Notes: generated by a model from the letters alone, not told the origin. Counted from the first letter of the stretch, positions 70-10,235 are shown. The stretch: DNA of 10,235 bases from an uncultured Deinococcales bacterium (GCA_964247135.1 CAXTTL010000176.1:1-10235), one strand, 5' to 3'. Program-made: numbers and translations.

Positions 70-102
70 CTGCACCTGCTTTCTCCCAATTGGGATGCCT
101 TT

Positions 103-133
103 GTGCTGGCTCGAGCGGGTTTTTCGAGCTATG
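103..133 (-). promoter_or_regulatory. Double-CTCGAG upstream motif, copy 1 (degenerate)
   Basis: + strand gtgctggCTCGAGcgggtttTTCGAGctatg; one hexamer has a mismatch; 7-nt spacer. Confidence 0.6.
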
Positions 134-147
134 ATTTTTTGGCAAGG

Positions 148-177
148 CTCGAGGTTCCAGTTTTCTGGAACCTCGAG
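148..177. repeat. Perfect 13-bp inverted repeat with CTCGAG ends
   Basis: CTCGAGGTTCCAG-TTTT-CTGGAACCTCGAG, downstream of the 242..688 gene. No U-tract on the minus strand, so a terminator role is uncertain. Confidence 0.7.
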
Positions 178-241
178 TGCCGCCTGTTGCGCGGGAATCC
201 GGTCGGGACCCGAGGATGGGAGGGGCGCAACACCCGAGGTT

Positions 242-688
242 TTAAGCGGCTGCGAACAGGTTGACTTGCCCTGGGCGGATTGCCAGGACTTGCGGGGCGG
301 CTCGCCTTGGCGCTCCGCGAAAAAATTCCAGGTTGTTGATGACAAAGCTTGCCATGTCTTCACTGGTGATTTCAGGTCCGTCGTAGGCGCCGAAACGTTT
401 GGCGAATCCGCCCAGGGTTTGAAGTTGTCCGGGACGTGGTTGTTTGCCGTCGCGCTTTACGCTGAAGTTGTCAAACAATGCTTCCCAGGGGATGAGTGTT
501 GGTTTTTCGCTCGTCCAGATCATGGTTTCAACTCCTTGTGAACGGTGAACCACGAAATTGATGATTTTGTCATTTTTGATTTCCGAGCATTTTTGCAGGT
601 GCGCATGTTGTTGCATGGTGGCGTAAGCGAGGGCTTTTGTGCGGGCGTTGCGGAGGGCGGTTTGCATTTGGATTTCGACTGGATTCAT
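242..688 (-). CDS. Hypothetical protein (148 aa) with a C-terminal QVNLF clamp-binding-like motif
   Basis: Start reassigned to ATG 688 because GAGGTG (700-695) lies 6 nt upstream. Preceded by a motif copy. Confidence 0.75.
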   Translation of the reverse strand: MNPVEIQMQTALRNARTKALAYATMQQHAHLQKCSEIKNDKIINFVVHRSQGVETMIWTSEKPTLIPWEALFDNFSVKRDGKQPRPGQLQTLGGFAKRFGAYDGPEITSEDMASFVINNLEFFRGAPRRAAPQVLAIRPGQVNLFAAA

Positions 689-707
689 GATTTTCACCTC
701 GCTGTAT

Positions 708-740
708 GATCTTGCTCGAGTGGGGTTCTCGAGCCACGGG
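708..740 (-). promoter_or_regulatory. Double-CTCGAG upstream motif, copy 2
   Basis: + strand gatcttgCTCGAGtggggttCTCGAGccacggg, between the stop at 748 and the RBS at 695-700. Confidence 0.75.
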
Positions 741-747
741 TTTGGGT

Positions 748-1215
748 TTAGGTGTTGGGTTTGTCGTGTTGAACCGAGAATTTTCCTGCTGGCAGGTTTT
801 GGGTCATGATGATCTGAATGTGTTTTTCGTCTTTCAACACGATTGAATCGTGTTCCTCACCTTTGGTTTTGTCTGGAATCAAGACCGCGTCGTATCCCGC
901 CGCCCAACAGGCGTTGATGACCTTGGTCTCGAGGTCGTTGAACAGGTACAAGCTTCGTCCCTCGAGGCATCGCTCGAGGGTTTTGCGTTCTGAGCGCTCG
1001 CGAAATATCGCTCTAACGCACTCAGGCTTGGTCAGATCGGCGATTACGGTCTCCTGTGAAATGTTGACCGTGTGAATCAGTCCACCAATTGGCGATTGCT
1101 GATACCACCACGCCGCATCCCAGGTGCTCGAGAGCCAAATGCCTGGACTGCGGGCGTCGGTTTGGAATTTGGATTTGGCGACATCAGTCAAAGTCATGCC
1201 GTGATACGCGATCAT
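748..1215 (-). CDS. Small ADP-ribosyltransferase-fold protein (ART-PolyVal-like), 155 aa
   Basis: Start reassigned to ATG 1215 (RBS GAGGAGG at 1226-1220). Motif order YHG...F...GIWLS...AxxY...GYDAV...E-x-x-x-IVL...HIQI matches the YHGT/GxYF/AxxY/GYDG pattern of H-Y-E-class ART-like domains. Confidence 0.65.
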   Translation of the reverse strand: MIAYHGMTLTDVAKSKFQTDARSPGIWLSSTWDAAWWYQQSPIGGLIHTVNISQETVIADLTKPECVRAIFRERSERKTLERCLEGRSLYLFNDLETKVINACWAAGYDAVLIPDKTKGEEHDSIVLKDEKHIQIIMTQNLPAGKFSVQHDKPNT

Positions 1216-1295
1216 CTTGCCTCCTCGGTTCACTGCAAGGTTTTTGAAAGGTCAAAAGTGTTCGATTCAGTTTTGACTTCTGGTGTTTTGCAATC

Positions 1296-1327
1296 AAAAA
1301 AAGGGGAGGGCGCAATGCGCCCTCCCC
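1296..1327 (-). terminator. Rho-independent terminator of the 1343..1759 gene
   Basis: Stem GGGGAGGGCGC-aat-GCGCCCTCCCC (1303-1327). A7 at 1296-1302 gives a U7 tail on the minus strand. Confidence 0.9.
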
Positions 1328-1342
1328 AGCAGTTCAAAAAGG

Positions 1343-1759
1343 TTAGTTCAATGCTTTTTTCGCTGCCTTGGCGATGGCGCGGCGTCTGGTTTCAGCGTTG
1401 TAGACGGTGAGCGCATCGCCGTGGATCGCTGGCACCTCGAGATTGAACTGGGTCAACAGCGCCACGATCGCGGGTTTGGTTGGACCGGCGAGTTCGGCGG
1501 CGCGTTTTTCGGCGGCGCGTTGCTGAAGTTTCTCGAGTCCATTCGCCCGCTTTTCGCGCCCGACGCCGCTGGCGGTGAGTTCTTCAACCTTTTTCAAGTA
1601 CACATTGACGGCTTTGCCGTGGTTGCTCGGGACTTTCTTGATGCCAATGGTTTGCATCAGTGTTTTCAACTCGGGCTTGGTCGGACCGGCGTTGCGGGTG
1701 GCGATCTTCTTGGCGCGGTTGTTGTTGAGTTTCTCGCGGATTGCTGCGGTGATGTTCAT
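1343..1759 (-). CDS. Basic repeat protein A (138 aa, 2 repeats), putative nucleic-acid binding
   Basis: Start reassigned to ATG 1759, because the longer ORF reads through the motif and leader. Repeats AGPTKPELKTLMQTIGIKKVPSNHGKAVNVY and AGPTKPAIVALLTQFNLEVPAIHGDALTVY. Paralog of 2175..2786. Confidence 0.85.
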   Translation of the reverse strand: MNITAAIREKLNNNRAKKIATRNAGPTKPELKTLMQTIGIKKVPSNHGKAVNVYLKKVEELTASGVGREKRANGLEKLQQRAAEKRAAELAGPTKPAIVALLTQFNLEVPAIHGDALTVYNAETRRRAIAKAAKKALN

Positions 1760-1812
1760 ATTTCCTGCTTTCTGCCCCGTGCTGGGGCGGTGCTGCGTTG
1801 TCCGTTTGGGAC
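1760..1812 (-). promoter_or_regulatory. Conserved two-hairpin 5' leader
   Basis: Minus strand GTCC-CAAAC-GGAC...GCCCC-AGCAC-GGGGC-AGAAAGCAGGAA; near-identical to 2787-2839. Confidence 0.65.
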
Positions 1813-1818
1813 ATCTTT

Positions 1819-1851
1819 GATCTTGCTCGAGCGGGGTTCTCGAGCTACGGG
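1819..1851 (-). promoter_or_regulatory. Double-CTCGAG upstream motif, copy 3
   Basis: + strand gatcttgCTCGAGcggggttCTCGAGctacggg. Confidence 0.75.
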
Positions 1852-2174
1852 TTTGCTTTGGTTTGAGGTCAACCACCTTGTTGGGGACTTGGCTGAATCC
1901 TCGAACCGAAGCCGCTCAAGAGAAATTGAGCTATAGGTTGTTGGTTCTCGAGCTGAGTCTGCCCGAGCTGGTTTTTGTTGCTGCTGAGGCGTTCGGAAGG
2001 GCTGGCGATCACCCTTCATTGACTCTACGAAGCCGAGGCATTGATGCTGGATTGTGAATTCACCGAAAGCGTTTTGCTGGGGCAAAATGGTTCGCCTCGC
2101 CATGGGACGCATCCCAGTCCGGTACGAGAGGGGAGGGTTGAGGTCACGCCGTTTTGGGCGTGATCTTAGGGTGG

Positions 2175-2786
2175 TTAGGCGGCGATGGCTTTGTTTTTCG
2201 TGACTTGGTTGTAAATCAACACCGCCTCGCCGTGCGTTGCTGGCACGTTTAAGCCCAGGCGTTCGAGGTGGTTGACCATGCCTTTGGTTGGGACGCCCGC
2301 GTGTTTGGTGGCTCGAGCGTGGCTGGCTTTGTTCTTCAATTTTTGCAAGCCTCGAGCACGACGGTTTGCGCTGTTTTCAGGCGTTGCACGTTTGGCACAA
2401 AGCTCGTTGTAACGAAGTGCAGCCACGCCATGGATGGCTGGAATATCTTTCTTCTTCATGCCCAAGCGTACCAACAGGTCTTTCAAGGTGGGTGTGGTGG
2501 GACCTTGGTCTTTCTCCAATTTCTTGAAAGCGTTTTTGACCTTTAACTTGTCCAAACTTGCGGCTTGTTTCTCTTCTTGGCTGCGCGTGCCTGTCCTCGC
2601 GGCAACCAAGCTGTTGTACATTTCCACCGCCTCGCCGTGAATGGCTGGCACGTGTTGCGGTTTGACCCCAAGGCGCTCGAGGTTTACCCGCAAGGTGTCT
2701 TTGGTGGCACCCGCATCGCGCATGGCACGTTGGACGAATTTTTGTTCCTCGAGTTTGCTGCGGACTGCTGCCGGCATCTTGCTCAT
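2175..2786 (-). CDS. Basic repeat protein B (203 aa, 3 repeats), putative nucleic-acid binding
   Basis: Three repeats: AGATKDTLRVNLERLGVKPQHVPAIHGEAVEMYN, QGPTTPTLKDLLVRLGMKKKDIPAIHGVAALRYN and AGVPTKGMVNHLERLGLNVPATHGEAVLIYN. K/R-rich, with AGGA upstream of the ATG. Confidence 0.85.
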   Translation of the reverse strand: MSKMPAAVRSKLEEQKFVQRAMRDAGATKDTLRVNLERLGVKPQHVPAIHGEAVEMYNSLVAARTGTRSQEEKQAASLDKLKVKNAFKKLEKDQGPTTPTLKDLLVRLGMKKKDIPAIHGVAALRYNELCAKRATPENSANRRARGLQKLKNKASHARATKHAGVPTKGMVNHLERLGLNVPATHGEAVLIYNQVTKNKAIAA

Positions 2787-2839
2787 ATGTTCCTGCTTTC
2801 TGCCCCGTACTGGGGCGGTTTTGCCTGTCCGTTTGGGAC
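2787..2839 (-). promoter_or_regulatory. Conserved two-hairpin 5' leader
   Basis: Minus strand GTCC-CAAAC-GGAC...GCCCC-AGTAC-GGGGC-AGAAAGCAGGAA; matches 1760-1812. Confidence 0.65.
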
Positions 2840-2845
2840 GCGAAA

Positions 2846-2880
2846 GTTCTTGCTCGAGCGGGGTTTGCTCGAGCTATGGG
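2846..2880 (-). promoter_or_regulatory. Double-CTCGAG upstream motif, copy 4 (9-nt spacer variant)
   Basis: + strand gttcttgCTCGAGcggggtttgCTCGAGctatggg. Confidence 0.75.
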
Positions 2881-2896
2881 TTTCGGGTGTTTGGTT

Positions 2897-2931
2897 AAGA
2901 AACAGGGGAGAGCGTCGAGCGCTCTCCCCTG
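2897..2931 (-). terminator. Rho-independent terminator of the lipoprotein gene
   Basis: 12-bp stem CAGGGGAGAGCG-tcgag-CGCTCTCCCCTG (2903-2931), followed by TTTCTT on the minus strand. Confidence 0.8.
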
Positions 2932-2954
2932 GTCAAAGGTTGTTGAAGTGAAAT

Positions 2955-5201
2955 CTATCTTGGAAAGTAAAACCGTGTAATTAGCGCATCGCTGTTGGGG
3001 ATGATGTTAAAGATGGTGCCCACGACATAGATTTTGCCGTTGAGCGGGTCGCGGGCGACGGCGTTGCCATAATCGTCACTTTCACCGTTTACATCGGTCA
3101 GCCCACAATTGCCGCTGGCTGTGCCGTTGACCGTCAAAAAGCGTTGGCAGGCGATGTCGTGATCGTTCAAAACGCTGCCAAGTGGATTCACCAGGTCACC
3201 GGCGATGATGATATTGCCGTTATTGTCAAGGATGATTGATTTGGCGCTGAGCTTGCCGGCGCTCGAGTATGGATCATTGGAGTTGAAGCCGTCGCCTGAA
3301 AATGTGGTGTCGACCAAGCCGGTCTTCAAAAAGCGTCCGATGGCGAAATCACCGCTCGAGCCACCGGTTGAACCGGCAACCACGATCCGTCCAGCCGCGT
3401 CGACGGTCACGGCGTTGGCTTCCTCGACGCTCGAGCCTGGGAAACTGATTTGCAATTGTCCGGTGGTGTTGATGGTTGGATCTATATTGCCGTTGACGCT
3501 AAGTTTGGCAATGAACCAATCTTTTGTTCCAGCGTTGTCGGTGGTGCCTGCCAAGTAAATTTCGGTGGCGTTCGCGGCGGCGATCCCGCCCAGGACCTCG
3601 TCGAATCCACGATCAACACTTTGCTTGCCGTCGCCGCTAAAATTCACGTCGAGCACACCGGTGTTCAGCACTTTGAAGGTTAGGTAATCCCTCGAGCCGA
3701 CAGCGCCTGTGGTGCCACCAATGTACAGGGTGTCTCCCAGAACCGTCAACGCCGTGCCGGTGTCCATCGTGTTCGCGCCAAAATCCACCACCAGCAAACC
3801 GTCTCCCGAGAAACTGGTGTCAAGTGCGCCGTTGTCCAAAAGGCGCATGATGCCAACTTCGGTGTCACCGTTCACCGTGTCTGTGACCGTTCCAACCACG
3901 TCGATCGCACCGTTGATGTCAACTTTGACCGCGTTGGCGACCGCGTTGCTGTAGCCTGGGCCAAAATTGTAATTGGCGCTGCCGTCTGTGTCAAAGCTGG
4001 TGTCTTTGGTTCCATCGCTGTTAAAACGCCTGACGATAAAATCGCTGCTTGGACTGCCCGAACCCACGACCACCAGGCGGCTCGAGCTGTCAATGATGGC
4101 ACCGTTGGCTTTGTCGTTGGTGGGACTGCCAAAGTTATCACTCAGCGCTCCACCCGACCAGTAGCAGTCATCAATGGAGCCGATGCCGACGTTGAAGCTC
4201 GATGGCAAGAGGTTCGCGTTGGTGAAAGTGCCGCTGGCGTTCGCGGTTGGGATTTGGCAGAGGTTCTCGACGCTTAGGGCTGAAAAGTTTTTGGAGCTGC
4301 CCGCCAACATTTTCACTGTTCCGGTCGGCAAGGTTTTGGCGGCGATCGTGCCTGTGGCTTGTTCTTCGAGACTTTGGGTGGTGCTCGCAAGGGTTTGATT
4401 GCCTGCCGCGAAATCGAACGCAAACGCCCAGGGTCGGCTGGCACGAGTCGAGCCGATCACGAATGGAACCTTAAATGCGAATGTGATGTAGCCTTGGCAC
4501 ACATTGCTGGTGCAACTATTGGCTACCCCAGGTGCGCCGTTGGTCGCACCGATAGCGCGACCCGAATTGGTGGCATTCCGGGCGACGTAGCCGTAACCAA
4601 GCACACCGGCTGTGTTGATGCCATATGCCGCGTTCAATTGTCCTGCAACGTCGGCGCGTTCGCTGGGGCTGATGATTTGCAAGTCCGAGGTGTCAGAGTT
4701 GATCTGCACCTCACCGGTGTAGCTGGGTTTCACGCCGTGAATCGGTTGGATGTTGCGGATTTGCACGCCGTCCGTAATTGCGGCGCCAGCGGCGTTGTTG
4801 ATGACCGTGAACATCGTGCCGAACTGGGTCGGCGTCGGAGCTTCGCCGCTCGGCACCGGAACGTCAAGCGCCCAGGTTGTGAAATTGTTGATTGGGCTGG
4901 CGGTGTTGTTTCGCACACCGAAGGTAGCGTAGACCGTTCTGACGCCAGCCAGTTCGTTGTCGTGGAATCCAACCCCAAGGCGCGTGAAGCCAAAGGATAC
5001 CGAGGGCAGGACGGATGCGGCTCGGGTCTGCTTAGGGCTTTTGATCTTGGCGCTCGCCTCGTTGGTGGTGAGATCAATTTTGACCTCGAGCAAACCGATC
5101 GGCGTTTGTGCCGGGGTTGGAGGTTTGGTGGGTTCGATGCTGGGACAAGCCACCAAACCCAGACTGAGGGCGAGGGCGAAGACGAGGACGGTTTTTTTCA
5201 T
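2955..5201 (-). CDS. Surface lipoprotein (748 aa) with C-terminal delta-60-type beta-propeller repeats
   Basis: Signal peptide MKK plus hydrophobic core plus lipobox LVA-C. RBS AAGGAG (5212-5207). Repeats such as RFNSDGTKDTSFDTDG, RLLDNGALDTSFSGDG, NTGVLDVNFSGDG and RFLKTGLVDTTFSGDG, with G[RK]IVVAG strands. Confidence 0.88.
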   Translation of the reverse strand: MKKTVLVFALALSLGLVACPSIEPTKPPTPAQTPIGLLEVKIDLTTNEASAKIKSPKQTRAASVLPSVSFGFTRLGVGFHDNELAGVRTVYATFGVRNNTASPINNFTTWALDVPVPSGEAPTPTQFGTMFTVINNAAGAAITDGVQIRNIQPIHGVKPSYTGEVQINSDTSDLQIISPSERADVAGQLNAAYGINTAGVLGYGYVARNATNSGRAIGATNGAPGVANSCTSNVCQGYITFAFKVPFVIGSTRASRPWAFAFDFAAGNQTLASTTQSLEEQATGTIAAKTLPTGTVKMLAGSSKNFSALSVENLCQIPTANASGTFTNANLLPSSFNVGIGSIDDCYWSGGALSDNFGSPTNDKANGAIIDSSSRLVVVGSGSPSSDFIVRRFNSDGTKDTSFDTDGSANYNFGPGYSNAVANAVKVDINGAIDVVGTVTDTVNGDTEVGIMRLLDNGALDTSFSGDGLLVVDFGANTMDTGTALTVLGDTLYIGGTTGAVGSRDYLTFKVLNTGVLDVNFSGDGKQSVDRGFDEVLGGIAAANATEIYLAGTTDNAGTKDWFIAKLSVNGNIDPTINTTGQLQISFPGSSVEEANAVTVDAAGRIVVAGSTGGSSGDFAIGRFLKTGLVDTTFSGDGFNSNDPYSSAGKLSAKSIILDNNGNIIIAGDLVNPLGSVLNDHDIACQRFLTVNGTASGNCGLTDVNGESDDYGNAVARDPLNGKIYVVGTIFNIIPNSDALITRFYFPR

Positions 5202-5372
5202 GTGATCTCCTTGACAAAGGTTGACTTTGTTGCGTCGTCAGCCTATGTCGATTGATTGAAGCAAAAGTTGTAAACCCGACAAGTGGGTTTGTTGGTTTTT
5301 CAAAAATAGGGACTGGTTACCCAAAAATGTTGTCATGCGGAGTGTTAGGTTTTTTGGTTATCACCGCTTGAG

Positions 5373-5597
5373 TTAGTCAACCAGTCGGCATTCTTCGAGT
5401 GTTCGGGCATAAAGACGATGGAAGCGCGTACCGTTTTTAAGGACGTTTTTCAAAGCCCAAGTCAATTTGTCGTCGTAAGTCCCATGTACCGGAAATGTCG
5501 AGACGCGCACTCGAGGCTTAATTCGCCAACTGAATCTTGGCTCGTGCGTAACTTTGATATATCGTTCCTCGAGAACAATCGTTTTGATTGGTGGCAT
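5373..5597 (-). CDS. Hypothetical basic protein (74 aa)
   Basis: ATG 5597 lies 7 nt after the stop of the upstream small ORF, with AAGGA as a possible RBS. Co-oriented with its neighbours. Confidence 0.55.
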   Translation of the reverse strand: MPPIKTIVLEERYIKVTHEPRFSWRIKPRVRVSTFPVHGTYDDKLTWALKNVLKNGTRFHRLYARTLEECRLVD

Positions 5598-5604
5598 GAA
5601 CGGC

Positions 5605-5739
5605 TCATTCCTTGGCTCGAGCCGTGTACGCCCGCACCGCGTAGATTTTGATTTGCGTCATTCGCGCTTCACGCTCACGTTTTTGTTTCACGGCGGCTTC
5701 GAATTGAGGAATGATTACTTTGAGAAACCACCTGTTCAT
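5605..5739 (-). CDS. Small hypothetical protein (44 aa): MNRWFLKVIIPQFEAAVKQKREREARMTQIKIYAVRAYTARAKE
   Basis: Manually translated. GGAGA (5750-5746) lies 6 nt upstream of ATG 5739; TGA at 5607-5605. Fills the gap between neighbouring genes and is below the ORF-track size cut-off. Confidence 0.6.
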   Translation of the reverse strand: MNRWFLKVIIPQFEAAVKQKREREARMTQIKIYAVRAYTARAKE

Positions 5740-5769
5740 GTTTTGTCTCCAATCAACACCATAAGTGAA

Positions 5770-5793
5770 GGGAATGCCAAACTTGGCATTCCC
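5770..5793 (-). terminator. Hairpin downstream of the 5811..6065 gene (possible weak terminator or processing stem)
   Basis: GGGAATGCCAA-ac-TTGGCATTCCC; imperfect minus-strand tail TTCACTTAT. Confidence 0.5.
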
Positions 5794-5810
5794 GATTTTG
5801 GATTGCCTTT

Positions 5811-6065
5811 TCAGGCGTTGGCACCGACGCTGCGCGGCGCTGGCGCGGCAAGCACTGAGTAATCAGGGTGACCGTGGCGTTTGGTGAATTCAAACTGGCT
5901 GATGCGGTCCAAGCCTGCCATCTCGAGGTTTTTGAAGTTAGAAACCACTTCTTGCACGCCGTCGTTGACGATCGAAACGAATTCGTGCCCCATTTGTCCG
6001 ATGGTGAACGTGTACTCGTGGTTGCGGATGTTTGCGACCCAACGGCTCAAGTGACGTACTGGCAT
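5811..6065 (-). CDS. Hypothetical protein (84 aa)
   Basis: Start reassigned to ATG 6065 (GGAG at 6074-6071). Lies downstream of motif copy 5 and a two-hairpin leader. Confidence 0.65.
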   Translation of the reverse strand: MPVRHLSRWVANIRNHEYTFTIGQMGHEFVSIVNDGVQEVVSNFKNLEMAGLDRISQFEFTKRHGHPDYSVLAAPAPRSVGANA

Positions 6066-6132
6066 GATGACTCCATTCAATGCGGTGTCCGCATTTTGAA
6101 CTTGCCCTGAGAGCGTCTCAGGTTCTGGAGTT

Positions 6133-6163
6133 GACCTTGCTCGAGTGGGTTTCTCGAGCTACG
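6133..6163 (-). promoter_or_regulatory. Double-CTCGAG upstream motif, copy 5
   Basis: + strand gaccttgCTCGAGtgggtttCTCGAGctacg. Confidence 0.75.
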
Positions 6164-6178
6164 CTGTTGAATTTGGGC

Positions 6179-6829
6179 TTAAAACGGTAAGTCCAGTCCT
6201 GACTGAGCGGTTTGCGGCATTGGTTCATTCGCTTCTGGCTGCAGCGCTTCGTTTGGGCGATTGAAGCTCTCAACGATCGCCCCGGCGAGCGAGTCGAAAA
6301 CCCCGCCGCTGCTGAGTTCCCAACCACCCTCGACTTCGGTTATGGTTTCGGTGGTGGGGCTTTCGTTGATGAACAATTGAAATTCCTTGAGGTTGGCGGT
6401 TGTGGTTTCGAGCCTGATGGAGGCTTGTTCGTAATCAGGCTCGCCGTAACCAAACTCACAACGAAAATCATCGAGATCATTGCCCTCCTCGAATTCGTCC
6501 TCGAAATCGTTGATGTCCTCCGAGTAAGCAATCACAATGTCTCGCAACATCGATTCACTCGCAACACCCTGACCAGGCAAAAGCAATTGAAAGCCTTGCG
6601 GCATCACCAAATACGCATCTTCTCCCTCTTCAAGCACGTCACCGACCGACAAGGACCGATGACCGTGATCCGCACCGATGCCAGCTTGCAGTTCAGCGAA
6701 TGCCGCTTCCAGGTCTGTTGCCTCGAGCAAACCGTGTGGTTCGTGCGTTTCGGTTAGCGTTTCGAGATTTGCTTGTGGGACGAGCATTGCGAGGACGTTT
6801 TTGGCCAGCCAAACTTTATAGGTTTTCAT
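6179..6829 (-). CDS. YodL-like domain protein with a highly acidic C-terminal part (216 aa)
   Basis: LEAAF...HRSLSVGDVL...AYLVMPQGF resembles the YodL signature (LExxF...RSLSVxDVV...YxxxxxGF). RBS GAGGTG (6839-6834). About 43 D/E versus 9 K/R by manual count. Confidence 0.75.
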   Translation of the reverse strand: MKTYKVWLAKNVLAMLVPQANLETLTETHEPHGLLEATDLEAAFAELQAGIGADHGHRSLSVGDVLEEGEDAYLVMPQGFQLLLPGQGVASESMLRDIVIAYSEDINDFEDEFEEGNDLDDFRCEFGYGEPDYEQASIRLETTTANLKEFQLFINESPTTETITEVEGGWELSSGGVFDSLAGAIVESFNRPNEALQPEANEPMPQTAQSGLDLPF

Positions 6830-6845
6830 GTTTCACCTCGCAAAT

Positions 6846-6875
6846 TTCCTTGCTCGAGCGGGGTTCTCGAGCTGC
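6846..6875 (-). promoter_or_regulatory. Double-CTCGAG upstream motif, copy 6
   Basis: + strand ttccttgCTCGAGcggggttCTCGAGctgc. Confidence 0.75.
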
Positions 6876-7035
6876 TGAATTTGTACTGCGCCAGCTTGGC
6901 TTTACTCAGCAACGTGTTGCTTTTCCTCAAACCAAAAACCAAACTCGTACTACCCTGAAATCGTTCAGTGTACGAAGTCAGAATTTCTGATTTCCGATCG
7001 CTGAATGCGATCCGTACAACTGGCAGAGGAGTCTT

Positions 7036-7191
7036 ATGGTTTGGATCAAGATTTTGGCTTTTGGTCATTCAAGTTGGTTTCAAGTGCCCGTCATGCAGCT
7101 CGAGGCACTCAAAACGGAGTTGTTGTCCCAAGGTCATAAGCTGCTTGAGACGCTCACCGAGACTGATCTGAACAGGGTCTTGTACGGTTAG
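7036..7191 (+). CDS. Small plus-strand protein (51 aa): MVWIKILAFGHSSWFQVPVMQLEALKTELLSQGHKLLETLTETDLNRVLYG
   Basis: Manually translated. GAGGAG (7026-7031) precedes ATG 7036; TAG at 7189-7191 is followed directly by hairpins and a plus-strand T-tract. Not in the ORF track. Confidence 0.65.
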   Translation: MVWIKILAFGHSSWFQVPVMQLEALKTELLSQGHKLLETLTETDLNRVLYG

Positions 7192-7196
7192 TCGCC

Positions 7197-7249
7197 CAAG
7201 GCTTTTGCCTTGTGTGGTCAAAACAAATTGTTTTGACCACTTTTATTTT
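7197..7249 (+). terminator. Tandem hairpins / plus-strand terminator
   Basis: CAAGGC-tttt-GCCTTG (7197-7212), then GTGGTCAAAACAA-a-TTGTTTTGACCAC (7214-7240), then TTTTATTTT. Confidence 0.65.
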
Positions 7250-7325
7250 GTGACTGCACGGTCTGGACATTTTTTAAACACGGGGAACGTTATGTTCCCT
7301 CGAGCATCAATGCCCGCGTGTTTGC

Positions 7326-7808
7326 TCACCCTTTGCCTTCCTCGCGGATGTTCATTAGCATTTTGCCCAACCGGTTTTGACCGATCCCGGTTTTAAGGTC
7401 AACCCCCCAAAAGCGGTCGCCCCAGGCGTTCCCCTCAGCAATGTGCAATTCGCCAGTGTTTTGCAAAAGCCGCCCCAGGCTCGGGATGCTAAACTTTTGC
7501 CGTACCAAGTCCAGCATAATTGCCTCTTTCACGCTGTTCCAGTCGGCGTGAACCATAATTTCTTTACCAAGGCGTTTGGCTTCAAATGCCTTGAGTCCAA
7601 CGAACCGCAAGGCATCTCCTGGGTTTGCACATTTCGCTGCCTGGTACGCGCCTTCAACATGCTCAAACTGAAGGTCTTCTTTCAATCCCGGCAGTAATTT
7701 GGCACTCAATCGAACTCGAGCCAACCAGAAGTTTGAGAGAAACCGAAACTCGCCCTGGAATTCACGGATTGCATCGGTTGAACTTGCGCCAATGTTTAAG
7801 TTATTCAT
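7326..7808 (-). CDS. NADAR family (YbiA-like) protein, 160 aa
   Basis: Motifs FLSNF, VEGAYQAAK, AKRLG, W...K..IM.....QKF, L...L..TG...IAE, WGDRFWG and GQNRLGKMLM.IR are typical of NADAR proteins. Confidence 0.93.
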   Translation of the reverse strand: MNNLNIGASSTDAIREFQGEFRFLSNFWLARVRLSAKLLPGLKEDLQFEHVEGAYQAAKCANPGDALRFVGLKAFEAKRLGKEIMVHADWNSVKEAIMLDLVRQKFSIPSLGRLLQNTGELHIAEGNAWGDRFWGVDLKTGIGQNRLGKMLMNIREEGKG

Positions 7809-7814
7809 GCCGTT

Positions 7815-7847
7815 GATCTTGCTCGAGCGGGGTTTGCTCGAGCTACG
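7815..7847 (-). promoter_or_regulatory. Double-CTCGAG upstream motif, copy 7 (9-nt spacer), directly before an apparently leaderless ATG
   Basis: + strand gatcttgCTCGAGcggggtttgCTCGAGctacg. Only 6 nt separate it from ATG 7808, and there is no SD sequence. Confidence 0.78.
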
Positions 7848-7850
7848 CTT

Positions 7851-7885
7851 TTGATGGTGGGCAGTATCAACTGCCCCACCATCAA
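7851..7885 (-). terminator. Hairpin after the helicase stop codon
   Basis: TTGATGGTGGGCAG...CTGCCCCACCATCAA, 14 bp with one bulge. It lacks a minus-strand U-tract. Confidence 0.5.
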
Positions 7886-7889
7886 GATT

Positions 7890-9959
7890 TCAGTTTAGAC
7901 GTTGAACCGAACGCTCCCGCCAGTACGTTTCTGCCATGGCGCTGACCTCGAGCCGACCCCGCATCCCATACCGTTTTGCATCATCCAGTACCGAGGTGAT
8001 CAGCACCCCAGCTTCTTTGAGCAATGCCTGGGCTTTGAAGAACCGTTCAAAGTACCGCTCGAGTCCCAGTTCATCAACACTCCGTGCAACCTCGAGCGTT
8101 TCTTGCGGCGTCCACGAACGCGGATGCACTTGCAAGGCGTCTCCGACCACCACCATGCTCGAGAGCAGCTTTTCGATCAACGCCTCGTCAAAGAACCTGG
8201 ATCGTTTGCCCAACCGGGTGAACAAATGCAGCTTCTGACGGCAACGCGTCACCCCGACGTAAAACAATCGGCGTTCGTCCGCCAAGTTGCTCTCACTCGG
8301 AAATGCCCCATGTGGCAGCACCCCGTCGTCAACGTCGGGCATGATCACCACATCCCATTCCAAGCCCTTGCTCGAGTGAATGCTGCTCAACGTGAGCGCC
8401 TGATTGTGAACCAATGGGTTCAGCAACATCTCGAGTGTTTCACGTGCGTTGATTGAGGCACAAAAATCCTCGAGCAACGCCGCCTTGCGCGGATCACGCT
8501 TTTCATTCCAGTGCCAAGCCGCGTGCTGCGCGGTTTGCCGCATGGCTGCCTCGAGACTCAAGTGCTTCAAGTCAAGCGTGAACTCGAGCACTTCGAGCGC
8601 CACCTCGCCCGCGTGACCGACCTGATTTAAAGCCTGGGTCAAACCCTTGCCTTGCTCCAAAATCAACATTGGCACGTCTTTTAAAGCCTTTTTCAGTTGA
8701 TGGTCGAAACCCGCCACCAACCACGACCAACGGTTTTTCAGGTGGCTGCCATCCTCGGGCGTCCATTGAACCCGAGGCACGCCGAGCAAACCAGACAACC
8801 AAAACGCAGCCATCAATGCCAATCCCTCAGCCCGTTCGCGCAGCGCCTCACGACCCTCAAGCCGGTACGGAATGCCCGCCTTCAACAACCTCGACTCGAG
8901 CGCCGTGCTGTTGTTGAAATTGCGCACCAAAATCGCCACGTTCTCTAAACCGCCCGAGTGGGCTTCCGCCGCAACAACTTGCGTGATCTCTTCAGCCATG
9001 TCTGCTTGAAGACCGAGCTGGTACAGTTTGGTTTCACCACCAAAACCGAGCGTCAACGACGCCTGTTTCACTTCACGGTCGCTGTTGTTGGCGATCACCC
9101 GATTCGCCAGACCCAAATGACTCGCCTGGCAGCGAAAATTGTCCGAGAGCACGAACTTCTTGGCTTGCCAACGACCCTCAAAATTCAGAATGTGCGAGCT
9201 GCTCGCACCCTGAAACGAAAATATGCACTGGTCGTCATCGCCCAAAACCATGATGTTGCGGTCTCGAGCCGCGATCAGATCCACCAAACCCGCCTGGGCG
9301 AGATTGACGTCCTGATACTCGTCGATGAACAAACACCTGTAACGGTTTTGCACCCGCTCGAGCAACTCCGGACGGTTGCGCAACAGCAGCCACGCGTCGG
9401 CAATCAGATCACAAAAATCCATCAAACCACGCTCGAGCCGAATCCGCTCGAAAGCCCGGTACACCTCGAGTAGCCCACCGTGCAACTGCGACGCACCCAT
9501 CGGGATGAGTTCACCAACGGCACGCCCGAGGTCCGCGAACACCAGGTTCGCCTTCCACAACCTGACATGCTCGAGTAACACCTCCGGCGCCAGATTAGCC
9601 TGGCTGACCTTTACTGCCGCCGCCGCCGCCCCGAACAACTTCATCGAATCCAGACTCAGCTCGGGCGACCAATGTTCGCGCACCGCAACATTGATGATTT
9701 GACGCGCCAGTCGGTGCGTGGTGCCGAGTTCAATCCCAGAGCACAGCTCAAAGTCCTTCAATTTTCGCTCAATCGCATTGACCGAAGCGTTCGAGAAGCT
9801 GCCAGCAAAAATTTCACGGGCATTGAACACACCTTCACGTACCAAACGTTCGGCTCGAGCGACCATCGCCGTCGTTTTACCCGCGCCCGCGACGGCAAAA
9901 ACCAGCGCGGGTCCCAAATCGTGCTCGACGACCGCCATTTGTTCTGGAATCAGTTTCAT
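7890..9959 (-). CDS. UvrD/REP/PcrA-family SF1 ATP-dependent helicase (689 aa)
   Basis: Walker A AVAGAGKT, Walker B IDEYQD, motif III GDDDQCIFSFQGA, IV NFR, V IHSSKGLEW and VI ERRLFYVGVTR. RBS AGGAGG (9969-9964). Confidence 0.95.
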   Translation of the reverse strand: MKLIPEQMAVVEHDLGPALVFAVAGAGKTTAMVARAERLVREGVFNAREIFAGSFSNASVNAIERKLKDFELCSGIELGTTHRLARQIINVAVREHWSPELSLDSMKLFGAAAAAVKVSQANLAPEVLLEHVRLWKANLVFADLGRAVGELIPMGASQLHGGLLEVYRAFERIRLERGLMDFCDLIADAWLLLRNRPELLERVQNRYRCLFIDEYQDVNLAQAGLVDLIAARDRNIMVLGDDDQCIFSFQGASSSHILNFEGRWQAKKFVLSDNFRCQASHLGLANRVIANNSDREVKQASLTLGFGGETKLYQLGLQADMAEEITQVVAAEAHSGGLENVAILVRNFNNSTALESRLLKAGIPYRLEGREALRERAEGLALMAAFWLSGLLGVPRVQWTPEDGSHLKNRWSWLVAGFDHQLKKALKDVPMLILEQGKGLTQALNQVGHAGEVALEVLEFTLDLKHLSLEAAMRQTAQHAAWHWNEKRDPRKAALLEDFCASINARETLEMLLNPLVHNQALTLSSIHSSKGLEWDVVIMPDVDDGVLPHGAFPSESNLADERRLFYVGVTRCRQKLHLFTRLGKRSRFFDEALIEKLLSSMVVVGDALQVHPRSWTPQETLEVARSVDELGLERYFERFFKAQALLKEAGVLITSVLDDAKRYGMRGRLEVSAMAETYWRERSVQRLN

Positions 9960-9975
9960 CTTTCCTCCTGCAAAT

Positions 9976-10007
9976 GATCTTGCTCGAGCGGGTTTCTCGA
10001 GCTACGG
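9976..10007 (-). promoter_or_regulatory. Double-CTCGAG upstream motif, copy 8
   Basis: + strand gatcttgCTCGAGcgggtttCTCGAGctacgg. Confidence 0.78.
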
Positions 10008-10202
10008 TGTTTTGCTTTTTGGTTGACACGGCAAGGTAAATTGACGTTTCCAACGCTTGCCAAAACTTAAAGCAAATCTGTGACGACTCAAATAACCGCT
10101 TGACTTCACCAAAACACCATTCAAATAGCAATTGCAAATGCAGCACTCAATGTCGTTAGAAACCTCAAAACGTGCTCGAGCGTTCTTGGTCAGGTCACTC
10201 AC
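10002..10202 (-). CDS. Hypothetical protein (about 66 aa; start uncertain)
   Basis: Co-oriented ORF whose TAG stop lies inside motif copy 8. No clear RBS. Confidence 0.35.
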   Translation of the reverse strand: MSDLTKNARARFEVSNDIECCICNCYLNGVLVKSSGYLSRHRFALSFGKRWKRQFTLPCQPKSKTP

Positions 10203-10235
10203 GACTCTGACCGTTAGGTTTTACGGTTCCCTTTG

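Follow-up and report, generated by a model that had tools for sequence, protein, structure and literature searches.

What is a short palindromic sequence doing ahead of gene after gene in one small contig? The question is raised by a 10,235-nt stretch of DNA from an uncultured Deinococcales bacterium (GCA_964247135.1, CAXTTL010000176.1:1-10235), hereafter the window, in which all plausible genes lie on the minus strand. The original prediction, made from the sequence, had described eight co-oriented copies of a motif built on two CTCGAG hexamers and had proposed that they form a novel promoter or operator regulon. Here we report that the repeat is real and specific to one element, and that it is probably the shared promoter of a conjugative element, with transcripts predicted to start 13 nt past the stem of a hairpin. 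The window is the entire contig C176 of an assembly of 5.09 Mb in 386 contigs, and further copies lie on contigs C75 and C325.

Thirteen copies of one module

We built a profile from the eight window copies (nhmmer) and ran it on the contigs of the assembly. In the window it matches the minus strand at 96-138, 705-743, 1812-1854, 2839-2883, 6128-6168, 6839-6881, 7807-7852 and 9969-10011, with E-values of 1e-12 to 2e-8, which bears out the positions and the single orientation originally given for the copies. Only five further sites in the assembly reached E <0.01, two on C325 (~292 and ~877) and three on C75 (~3551, ~2103 and ~1307). The total is 13 copies (eight in the window, three on C75 and two on C325), all in gene orientation. 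They head 13 different genes and lie 2-67 nt before the start codons (the eight of the window, 6-67 nt), as had been claimed of their placement at gene starts; the distance to the preceding stop codon ranges from ~4 to ~440 nt. The motif as first described was too short: the conserved span, which we call the module, is 45-49 nt. The window copies are as follows.

9969-10011, minus strand: module copy 1, arms at 9996-10001 and 9983-9988, loop AAACCCG, box AAGATCA; before the UvrD-type helicase gene
7808-7852, minus strand: module copy 2, 8-bp stem GCTCGAGC, hexamer spacing 9 nt; before the NADAR gene
6839-6881, minus strand: module copy 3, 5' flank GCAG instead of GTAG; before a 216-aa gene
6126-6168, minus strand: module copy 4, beginning 10 nt past the stop codon of the 216-aa gene
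2839-2883, minus strand: module copy 5, 8-bp stem, hexamer spacing 9 nt; ~20 nt past a terminator at 2931-2903
1812-1854, minus strand: module copy 6; before a 138-aa gene
701-743, minus strand: module copy 7, beginning 4 nt past the stop codon of a 155-aa gene; before a 148-aa open reading frame (ORF)
96-138, minus strand: module copy 8, degenerate, first arm CTCGAA, 6-bp stem, box CAGCACA

Two perfect CTCGAG hexamers, originally ascribed to every copy, are present in seven of the window copies; in the eighth (103-133 in the first description) one hexamer is degenerate and reads CTCGAA on the minus strand. With this copy counted, six copies do show the reported 7-nt spacing and two the reported 9-nt spacing. 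Over all 13 copies the hexamers are 7 nt apart in eight, 9 nt in two and 11 nt in three. Another hexamer pair in the window, at 961-978, is unrelated and lies inside a coding region.

A second profile, trained on the 13 copies, scored these same members at 27.6 bits or more and the next assembly site at 17.7 bits, a gap that is partly circular because the model derives from the members it scores. The pattern TAGCTCGAG-N5-13-CTCGAG has 10 sites in the genome, eight of them on C176 and C75, and GTAGCTCGAG is rare (51 sites, both strands counted). Both flanks together occur at no site of the 5.09-Mb assembly beyond the 13 copies. A partial motif on C53, before a MerR-B12 regulator and carotenoid genes, was treated as chance because it is chromosomal and has no second arm. 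The exact core, written in IUPAC code, had 0 matches in each of the viral, metagenome and genome collections, and a search of 60 relatives with one mismatch allowed gave two single sites only, neither with the flanking blocks.

The hexamers themselves are far less specific. CTCGAG is ~27-fold over-represented in the window (59 observed, 2.2 expected), and the genome holds 33,925 occurrences in 5.09 Mb (6.66 per kb), with some in every contig and a three-base periodicity in their spacings. Pairs at spacing 7 number 99 genome-wide and pairs at spacing 9 number 171. Because the word is so abundant, two adjacent hexamers alone are unremarkable, and a shuffle control for hexamer pairs (0 expected) is the wrong control and overstates their significance. 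Specificity resides in the flanks and the loop, that is, in the full module and not in the hexamer pair. The module shares with HIP1-like palindromes a stem built from a hyper-abundant word of its genome, but it is a specific 45-nt composite present 13 times, not a word present tens of thousands of times. The density of CTCGAG is 5.76 per kb in the window, 4.65 on C325 and 3.45 on C75, the last value being in the lowest 1% of the 222 contigs of at least 8 kb. By this measure the mobile element seems only partly adapted to the word bias of its host.

These counts bear on the possibility that the repeat is a functionless, selfish sequence akin to repetitive extragenic palindromes (REPs) or miniature inverted-repeat transposable elements (MITEs), or a by-product of the CTCGAG excess. 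The excess itself speaks for it, as does the GTAG ahead of the palindrome, which we take to resemble the heads of REPs. However, there are 13 copies only, on one element's contigs, in gene orientation and close to start codons; GTAGCTCGAG is rare; and the flanks and a pyrimidine-purine step are conserved. The genome-wide scan found the copies on C176, C75 and C325 only, not scattered at random as REPs or MITEs would be. We regard this explanation as very improbable and largely refuted. REPs with a RAYT transposase, which are chromosome-wide at high copy number and often form inverted pairs, were rejected as well, since the 13 copies are limited to three contigs of one element and all point the same way relative to the genes.

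Module architecture

We aligned the 13 copies on the stem and counted positions before (-) and after (+) it. On the gene strand the module reads AAAmCcGTA, GCTCGAG-loop-CTCGAGC, AAGRTCA, N4 and YR. Before the stem, A is found at -9 in 11/13 copies, at -8 in 13/13 and at -7 in 9/13, followed by C at -4 (9/13), G at -3 (9/13), T at -2 (12/13) and A at -1 (10/13). After the stem, AAG occupies positions 1-3 in 11-12 of the 13 copies, with a purine at 4 in 12, C at 6 in 10 and A at 7 in 11. A pyrimidine at position 12 and a purine at position 13 each occur in 12/13. Three copies have the loop sequence (AAACCCG/A) again in their upstream block and are also readable as two tandem AAACCCG-(TAG)-CTCGAG units. 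The TAG of the 5' flank was considered as a stop codon too, which is true of just one upstream ORF.

Start codons and ribosome-binding sites at a fixed distance

The promoter reading draws on what stands 13 nt past the stem. In three copies an ATG without a ribosome-binding site lies exactly at this position (window 7808, C75 ~2057 and ~1260); the genes that begin there are the NADAR gene of the window and, on C75, a DUF4326 gene and a 78-aa ORF. The NADAR ATG, 13 nt past the copy-2 stem, is a candidate leaderless start, and any other in-frame start would lose part of the domain. Four other copies have a ribosome-binding site, AGGAGG or GAGGTG, with its first base at position 13 or 14. At copy 7, for instance, GAGGTG begins at position 14, and in two copies a ribosome-binding site stands at the predicted start itself.

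9969 (A), minus strand: predicted transcription start of copy 1, the first base of the AGGAGG ribosome-binding site
6839 (G), minus strand: predicted transcription start of copy 3, the first base of the GAGGTG ribosome-binding site

Longer leaders are predicted for copy 4 (~60 nt, from 6126 to the ATG at 6065) and copy 5 (~53 nt, from 2839). The gene behind copy 5 requires a start of its own because a canonical terminator ends ~20 nt upstream.

Leaderless starts leave a signature in the host genome. TANNNT stands 6 nt before the first ATG in 359 of 4,649 long host ORFs, against a baseline of ~42; at 5 and 7 nt it does so in 112 and 118 ORFs, and before internal ATGs in 0.35%. The signature, TA(A/G)ACT ending 6 nt before the ATG, is found in 7.7%, with G enriched at -14 and -16 and no -35 signal. 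C precedes the ATG in 67%, and also in all three copies with an ATG at position 13. Judged by these patterns the host clearly makes wide use of leaderless mRNAs. In Deinococcus deserti, 60% of mRNAs are reported to be leaderless (PMC4007540).

Under the promoter reading, RNA polymerase would start at the purine of the YR step, 13 nt past the stem, giving leaderless mRNAs from three copies and leaders that open with a ribosome-binding site from four. With a start at this position, the AAGRTCA box would span -12 to -6; ahead of it, the dyad would extend from about -33 to -13, and the GTA block would fall close to -35. The dyad, sitting in the spacer, would be the docking site of a dedicated factor, encoded by the element or by the host, that could switch all 13 units together. 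Each copy would head a separate transcription unit of accessory or establishment-type genes (helicase, NADAR, DUF4326, small ORFs). By analogy with the Reg576 and ArdK systems discussed below, expression would be high just after transfer and later shut off.

Several observations weigh against this reading. In the standard register the box is AAGATC, with A at -11 but also A at -12, and C at -7; in the register CAAGAT the final T is found in 8/13 copies only. The host signature needs T first, and CANNNT shows no excess ahead of leaderless ATGs (84 at gap 6, compared with a baseline of 96). In host genes the geometry AAGRTCA-N4-Y-ATG is no more frequent than in shifted controls (13 sites, compared with 7 and 14). 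A look-up of sequencing runs listed none for the window, RNA runs included. The upstream block keeps its register with the stem, not with the predicted start, so that it shifts by 2-4 bp in the wider copies; because of this and of hexamer spacings of 7, 9 and 11 nt, a rigid -35/-10 pair or a dimeric repressor on duplex DNA is awkward. In six copies with leaders of ~20-60 nt the start site is unconstrained by sequence, and three copies at one distance could, by our own estimate, arise by chance in roughly 1 in 15 trials. The position counts come from copies of shared ancestry and are not independent. Moreover, no sigma factor, helix-turn-helix, ribbon-helix-helix or other DNA-binding family was found among the ORFs scanned on C176, C75 and C325 (Pfam, PHROGs, NCBIfam).

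The original prediction of a promoter regulon stands in part: the promoter-sized span, the YR step at a fixed distance in 12/13 copies and the ATG and ribosome-binding-site geometry fit a promoter, and the family scans of the three contigs returned none of the element-encoded sigma factors or regulators that had been proposed. Its remark that the motif does not match TTGACA/TATAAT agrees with our finding of no such pair at the copies, and the host TANNNT is absent from them too. Because the box is not of the host type and the upstream block is anchored to the stem, a dedicated factor, or else an unusual recognition of the stem base and both flanks, is probably needed. Sigma-54, ECF-sigma and T7/N4-type promoters were rejected, with wrong spacing or missing invariant bases in a comparison by eye. 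We had also considered the 138-aa repeat protein behind copy 6 as a helix-extension-helix DNA binder and dropped the idea, as no homologues were found. Its only Atlas leads are weak ones to HeH/LEM and Rho_N (0.77-0.79, below the useful range), and its all-helical model (pLDDT 85) gave no structural match at E <=0.001.

The hairpin

The dyad spans 21-27 nt and folds as a hairpin with a stem of 6-11 bp in 13/13 copies. Predicted energies are -8.7 to -22.4 kcal/mol as RNA (z -1.8 to -5.7) and -5.1 to -13.6 kcal/mol as DNA. In all five copies with wider hexamer spacing the added bases are complementary, so that the stem grows to 8-11 bp; the clearest extension is GGCTCGAGGG/CCCTCGAGCC on C325, with the usual loop AAACCCG. 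As a baseline, the share of CTCGAG pairs elsewhere in the genome whose inner and outer neighbours both pair is 27% for non-coding pairs (n = 159), 6.5% for coding pairs (n = 657) and 10.5% overall; the non-coding value is itself raised by real hairpins. The loop AAMCCCR is kept in 10/13 copies and differs in the three on C75.

Such a hairpin might act in the mRNA. The module would then be an RNA-level tag, a hairpin with single-stranded flanks in transcripts that start upstream or read through. Ahead of each cistron, such a tag might direct RNA processing, stabilise the message or be bound by an RNA-binding regulator or antiterminator. The common fold, the pairing of the added bases in 5/5 wider copies and the conserved loop are what one would expect of it, and copies 7 and 4 begin 4 and 10 nt past a stop codon with no terminator between. 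However, three ATGs without a ribosome-binding site at 13 nt suit a 5'-terminal AUG and not an internal one, the strong terminator ~20 nt before copy 5 leaves too little space for an upstream promoter, and the C75 loops deviate. There is also no Rfam match: the Rfam 15 covariance models gave just two chance-level matches in the window, neither at the module. We consider an RNA-level tag unlikely. A tRNA search found none.

A probable cassette edge

As for the terminators or hairpins of previous genes that several copies were said to follow, the claim is correct for the one canonical terminator, at 2931-2903 and for hairpins without a T-run at ~7853-7885 and 140-185, and fails at the two copies placed just behind stop codons. 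Another explanation needs no regulator: the hairpin would insulate from or end the upstream transcript, a -10-only promoter for the host RNA polymerase would follow, and the repeat would be kept mainly because its copies let genes swap by recombination, much as in the PeSL elements of T4-type phages. A -35 signal is absent from the host's promoters, so that a short promoter of the -10-only kind is normal here. Dual-CTCGAG stems are frequent in intergenic hairpins genome-wide (for example, at window 140-185 and C75 2549-2594); of 233 non-coding close pairs outside the element, 51% are extended by an outer base pair, and in 34% runs of T or A resemble bidirectional terminators. The module heads unrelated genes, and on C176 and C325 module and ribosome-binding site are common to unrelated genes. 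The units behind copies 5 and 6 (203-aa and 138-aa genes) are 81% identical over 135 nt, and their homology stops at the module's upstream edge.

On the other side, the box is unlike the host -10, no T-run follows the module stem, and the conservation of the loop and 5' block exceeds what a plain insulator needs. We found no close relative of the element that could show module-bounded indels. A search of 300 genomes of the order for the 216-aa protein gave its C325 paralogue and one weak match only, and helicase relatives in genome contigs reach at most ~30% identity over the full length and are for that reason unfit for synteny. A cassette of this kind without any regulator is, in our judgement, rather unlikely. 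It is compatible with the promoter reading, under which the module is probably a portable cassette edge for gene shuffling as well. The shuffling alternative in the original prediction has some support, in that the homology of the paralogous units ends at the module edge; the T-run and the sigma-70-type promoter of a true PeSL are missing.

The module belongs to a conjugative element

C75 encodes a TrbC/VirB2 pilin, a VirB4/TraC-like ATPase and a TraG/VirD4-type coupling protein, together with PLD-like proteins, an SRAP peptidase and DUF4326, and its three module copies lie in the final 3.5 kb, downstream of the secretion genes. Because C75 encodes a type IV secretion system, the element is conjugative and not a phage, and the genes first described as an early set are better seen as accessory or establishment genes. 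The best plasmid relatives of the C75 coupling protein all come from Thermus, Deinococcus, Meiothermus or Oceanithermus.

The assembly does not contain the whole element. The end of C75 (6-83) and the right end of the window (10158-10235) share 78 nt at 92% identity, from which we infer a physical link: the window is most likely an extension of the accessory region, either of this very element or of a sister conjugative one. This shared end probably caused the assembly break, and it hints at tandem paralogues or at two sister elements. The 78 nt are the 3' end of a gene.

That the element is conjugative, with all copies on one strand, also fits a signal in single-stranded DNA, in which the hairpin on the entering strand would direct priming or hairpin-dependent RNA synthesis until the complement is made. 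The stem base and both flanks are conserved while the distance from base to loop varies, as for proteins that read a hairpin plus tail, and single-strand promoters are known in the leading regions of F and ColIb-P9 (PMC8708921). Nevertheless, F-type promoters rebuild a duplex -35/-10, for which a 6-11-bp stem is much too short; the family scans of the three contigs recognised neither a primase nor a single-subunit RNA polymerase; and priming needs no tight coupling to start codons or ribosome-binding sites. We hold this to be decidedly unlikely.

Relatives of the coupling protein with 39-43% identity occur in genomes of the same genus or family, and the eight loci around them lack the module (best score 13.8 bits). 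One of these relatives, 39% identical, belongs to a distantly related integrated conjugative element in a complete genome of the same family (G011), in which five copies of a different upstream module of ~110 nt precede small genes.

L109 9496-9618, plus strand: G011 module copy
L109 10172-10295, plus strand: G011 module copy
L109 10781-10909, plus strand: G011 module copy
L110 8324-8439, minus strand: G011 module copy
L110 7438-7534, minus strand: G011 module copy

The G011 module consists of a variable hairpin, an invariant GGGTTCTTTGAAA, dual CTCGAG, a second hairpin and a ribosome-binding site. Because it keeps the dual CTCGAG (one hexamer is degenerate in one copy) while the 5-8-nt spacer varies, one may speculate that, in a lineage with genomes saturated in this palindrome, the CTCGAG pair itself is a sensor of 'just arrived' DNA and that no element-encoded repressor is needed. 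The pair in the promoter spacer would read a state of the DNA, either methylation that is incomplete on DNA freshly made after transfer or replication, or hairpin extrusion. We think this improbable, if worth stating.

Relation to known regulatory systems

In integrons, attC sites are imperfect palindromes of 55-141 nt with R''/L''/L'/R' boxes, found at the 3' end of each cassette. We rejected an attC identity for the module: its dyad is 21-27 nt, and its distance to the next start codon (2-67 nt) is tighter than that to the previous stop codon (~4 to ~440 nt); no integrase search was made.

The kind of system is already familiar from plasmids of other phyla, so that 'novel' in the original prediction was too strong: like modules are known from p576 and the pLS20 family (PMC6294495, PMC8708921) and from IncN plasmids (PMC6289460). 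In p576, dual heptamers TTATCCCnnTTATCCC at four establishment promoters are bound up with Reg576, a ribbon-helix-helix autorepressor (PMC6294495; PMC8708921). This Reg576/EGeRS2 system of a clade II pLS20-family plasmid resembles ours in that a conjugative element carries one dual motif at the promoters of several separate operons. In both, co-oriented units of variable, mostly uncharacterised or anti-defence-type genes are confined to part of the element, and a logic of derepression on entry and later silence would fit the module. In the Reg576 sites two heptamers stand in direct repeat, 2 bp from each other, and a strong sigma-A -35 box follows immediately downstream (PMC8708921), whereas the module has palindromic hexamers as an inverted repeat 7-11 nt apart, between the -35 position and the -10-like box. 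Further differences are that no ribbon-helix-helix repressor gene was recognised on the three contigs, that the promoter is not canonical for its host, and that the host belongs to another phylum.

The CUP elements of IncN plasmids and their repressor ArdK (Delver and Belogurov 1997, as cited in PMC6289460), which has a 13-nt consensus site, offer repeated conserved upstream sequences over leading-region promoters of a conjugative plasmid, forming one regulon. The module shows no evident sequence likeness to them, copy number and hairpin architecture differ, and CUP promoters are used by an E. coli-type sigma-70. No ArdK-like protein was recognised and no helix-turn-helix family matched in the family scans of the three contigs, which included no ArdK or CUP reference sequence. 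PeSLs are composite terminator-promoter motifs at indel boundaries of T4-type phages (PMC4122927; PMC2839356). They share with the module a short stem-loop plus promoter motif, repeated between unrelated small genes at module boundaries, but they are phage-borne and their stem-loop is a terminator upstream of a sigma-70-like early promoter, whereas ours lies inside the promoter-sized span and lacks a T-run. Single-stranded-DNA promoters of the Frpo type (F, ColIb-P9; PMC8708921, PMC11541004) likewise form hairpins upstream of co-oriented genes of conjugative elements. Their hairpins are long and rebuild a duplex promoter; the module stem is 6-11 bp, with the -10-like box outside it. The module thus resembles Reg576, CUP/ArdK and PeSLs in logic only, as operator form, regulator and promoter type differ.

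The control of mobile-element genes in the Deinococcus-Thermus phylum has, to our knowledge, been little studied. If confirmed, the module would give this phylum its first defined promoter and regulon signal for a conjugative element, and its 13 mostly uncharacterised genes would become a co-controlled set of candidate establishment or anti-defence genes, including NADAR, DUF4326, the UvrD-type helicase and an ADP-ribosyltransferase-like protein. The case would further illustrate the recruitment of a hyper-abundant genome palindrome into regulatory hairpins, and a compact 45-nt module yielding leaderless or minimal-leader mRNAs might serve as an expression cassette for these hosts.

Genes behind the window copies

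The labels originally given to the genes hold for the helicase and NADAR by Pfam, while YodL was not reproduced by Pfam. There is a weak match to a polyvalent-type ADP-ribosyltransferase in the window, and several genes are orphans. The gene behind copy 8 starts at 69 and runs off the contig.

7890-9959, minus strand: UvrD/PcrA-like helicase, 689 aa (Pfam UvrD-helicase 2.9e-41, UvrD_C 4e-28; PHROG DNA helicase 3e-83)
7326-7808, minus strand: NADAR-domain gene, 160 aa (Pfam NADAR 2.2e-18; PHROG 1017 6.6e-34)
6179-6829, minus strand: 216-aa gene without assigned function, its N-terminal 82 residues paralogous to a C325 gene
5811-6065, minus strand: 84-aa gene, no match in family searches
2903-2931, minus strand: intrinsic terminator of a 748-aa gene, a 12-bp stem followed by TTTCTT
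2175-2786, minus strand: 203-aa gene with three helical repeats, paralogue of the 138-aa gene
1343-1759, minus strand: 138-aa gene with two helical repeats

The N-terminal 82 residues of the 216-aa protein (window 6584-6829) have a 38%-identical paralogue at C325 961-1200, after the second C325 module. Because both proteins follow module copies, the same domain occurs twice under the same module.

The 203-aa and 138-aa genes share a leader of ~55 nt (2787-2838 and 1760-1811, minus strand), which contains a GC-rich hairpin, CCGCCCCAGYACGGGGC, ending just before the ribosome-binding site. This hairpin may be a separate translational control.

Among the accessory genes lies a secreted 748-aa protein of delta-60/DUF5122 beta-propeller repeats (2955-5201, minus strand), with no module ahead of it. 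The 450-nt gap after the NADAR gene (6883-7325) holds a convergent 51-aa ORF on the plus strand (7036-7191) with its own T-run terminator (7214-7240). A 53-nt segment of the window, 6992-7044, is 85% identical to contig C112.

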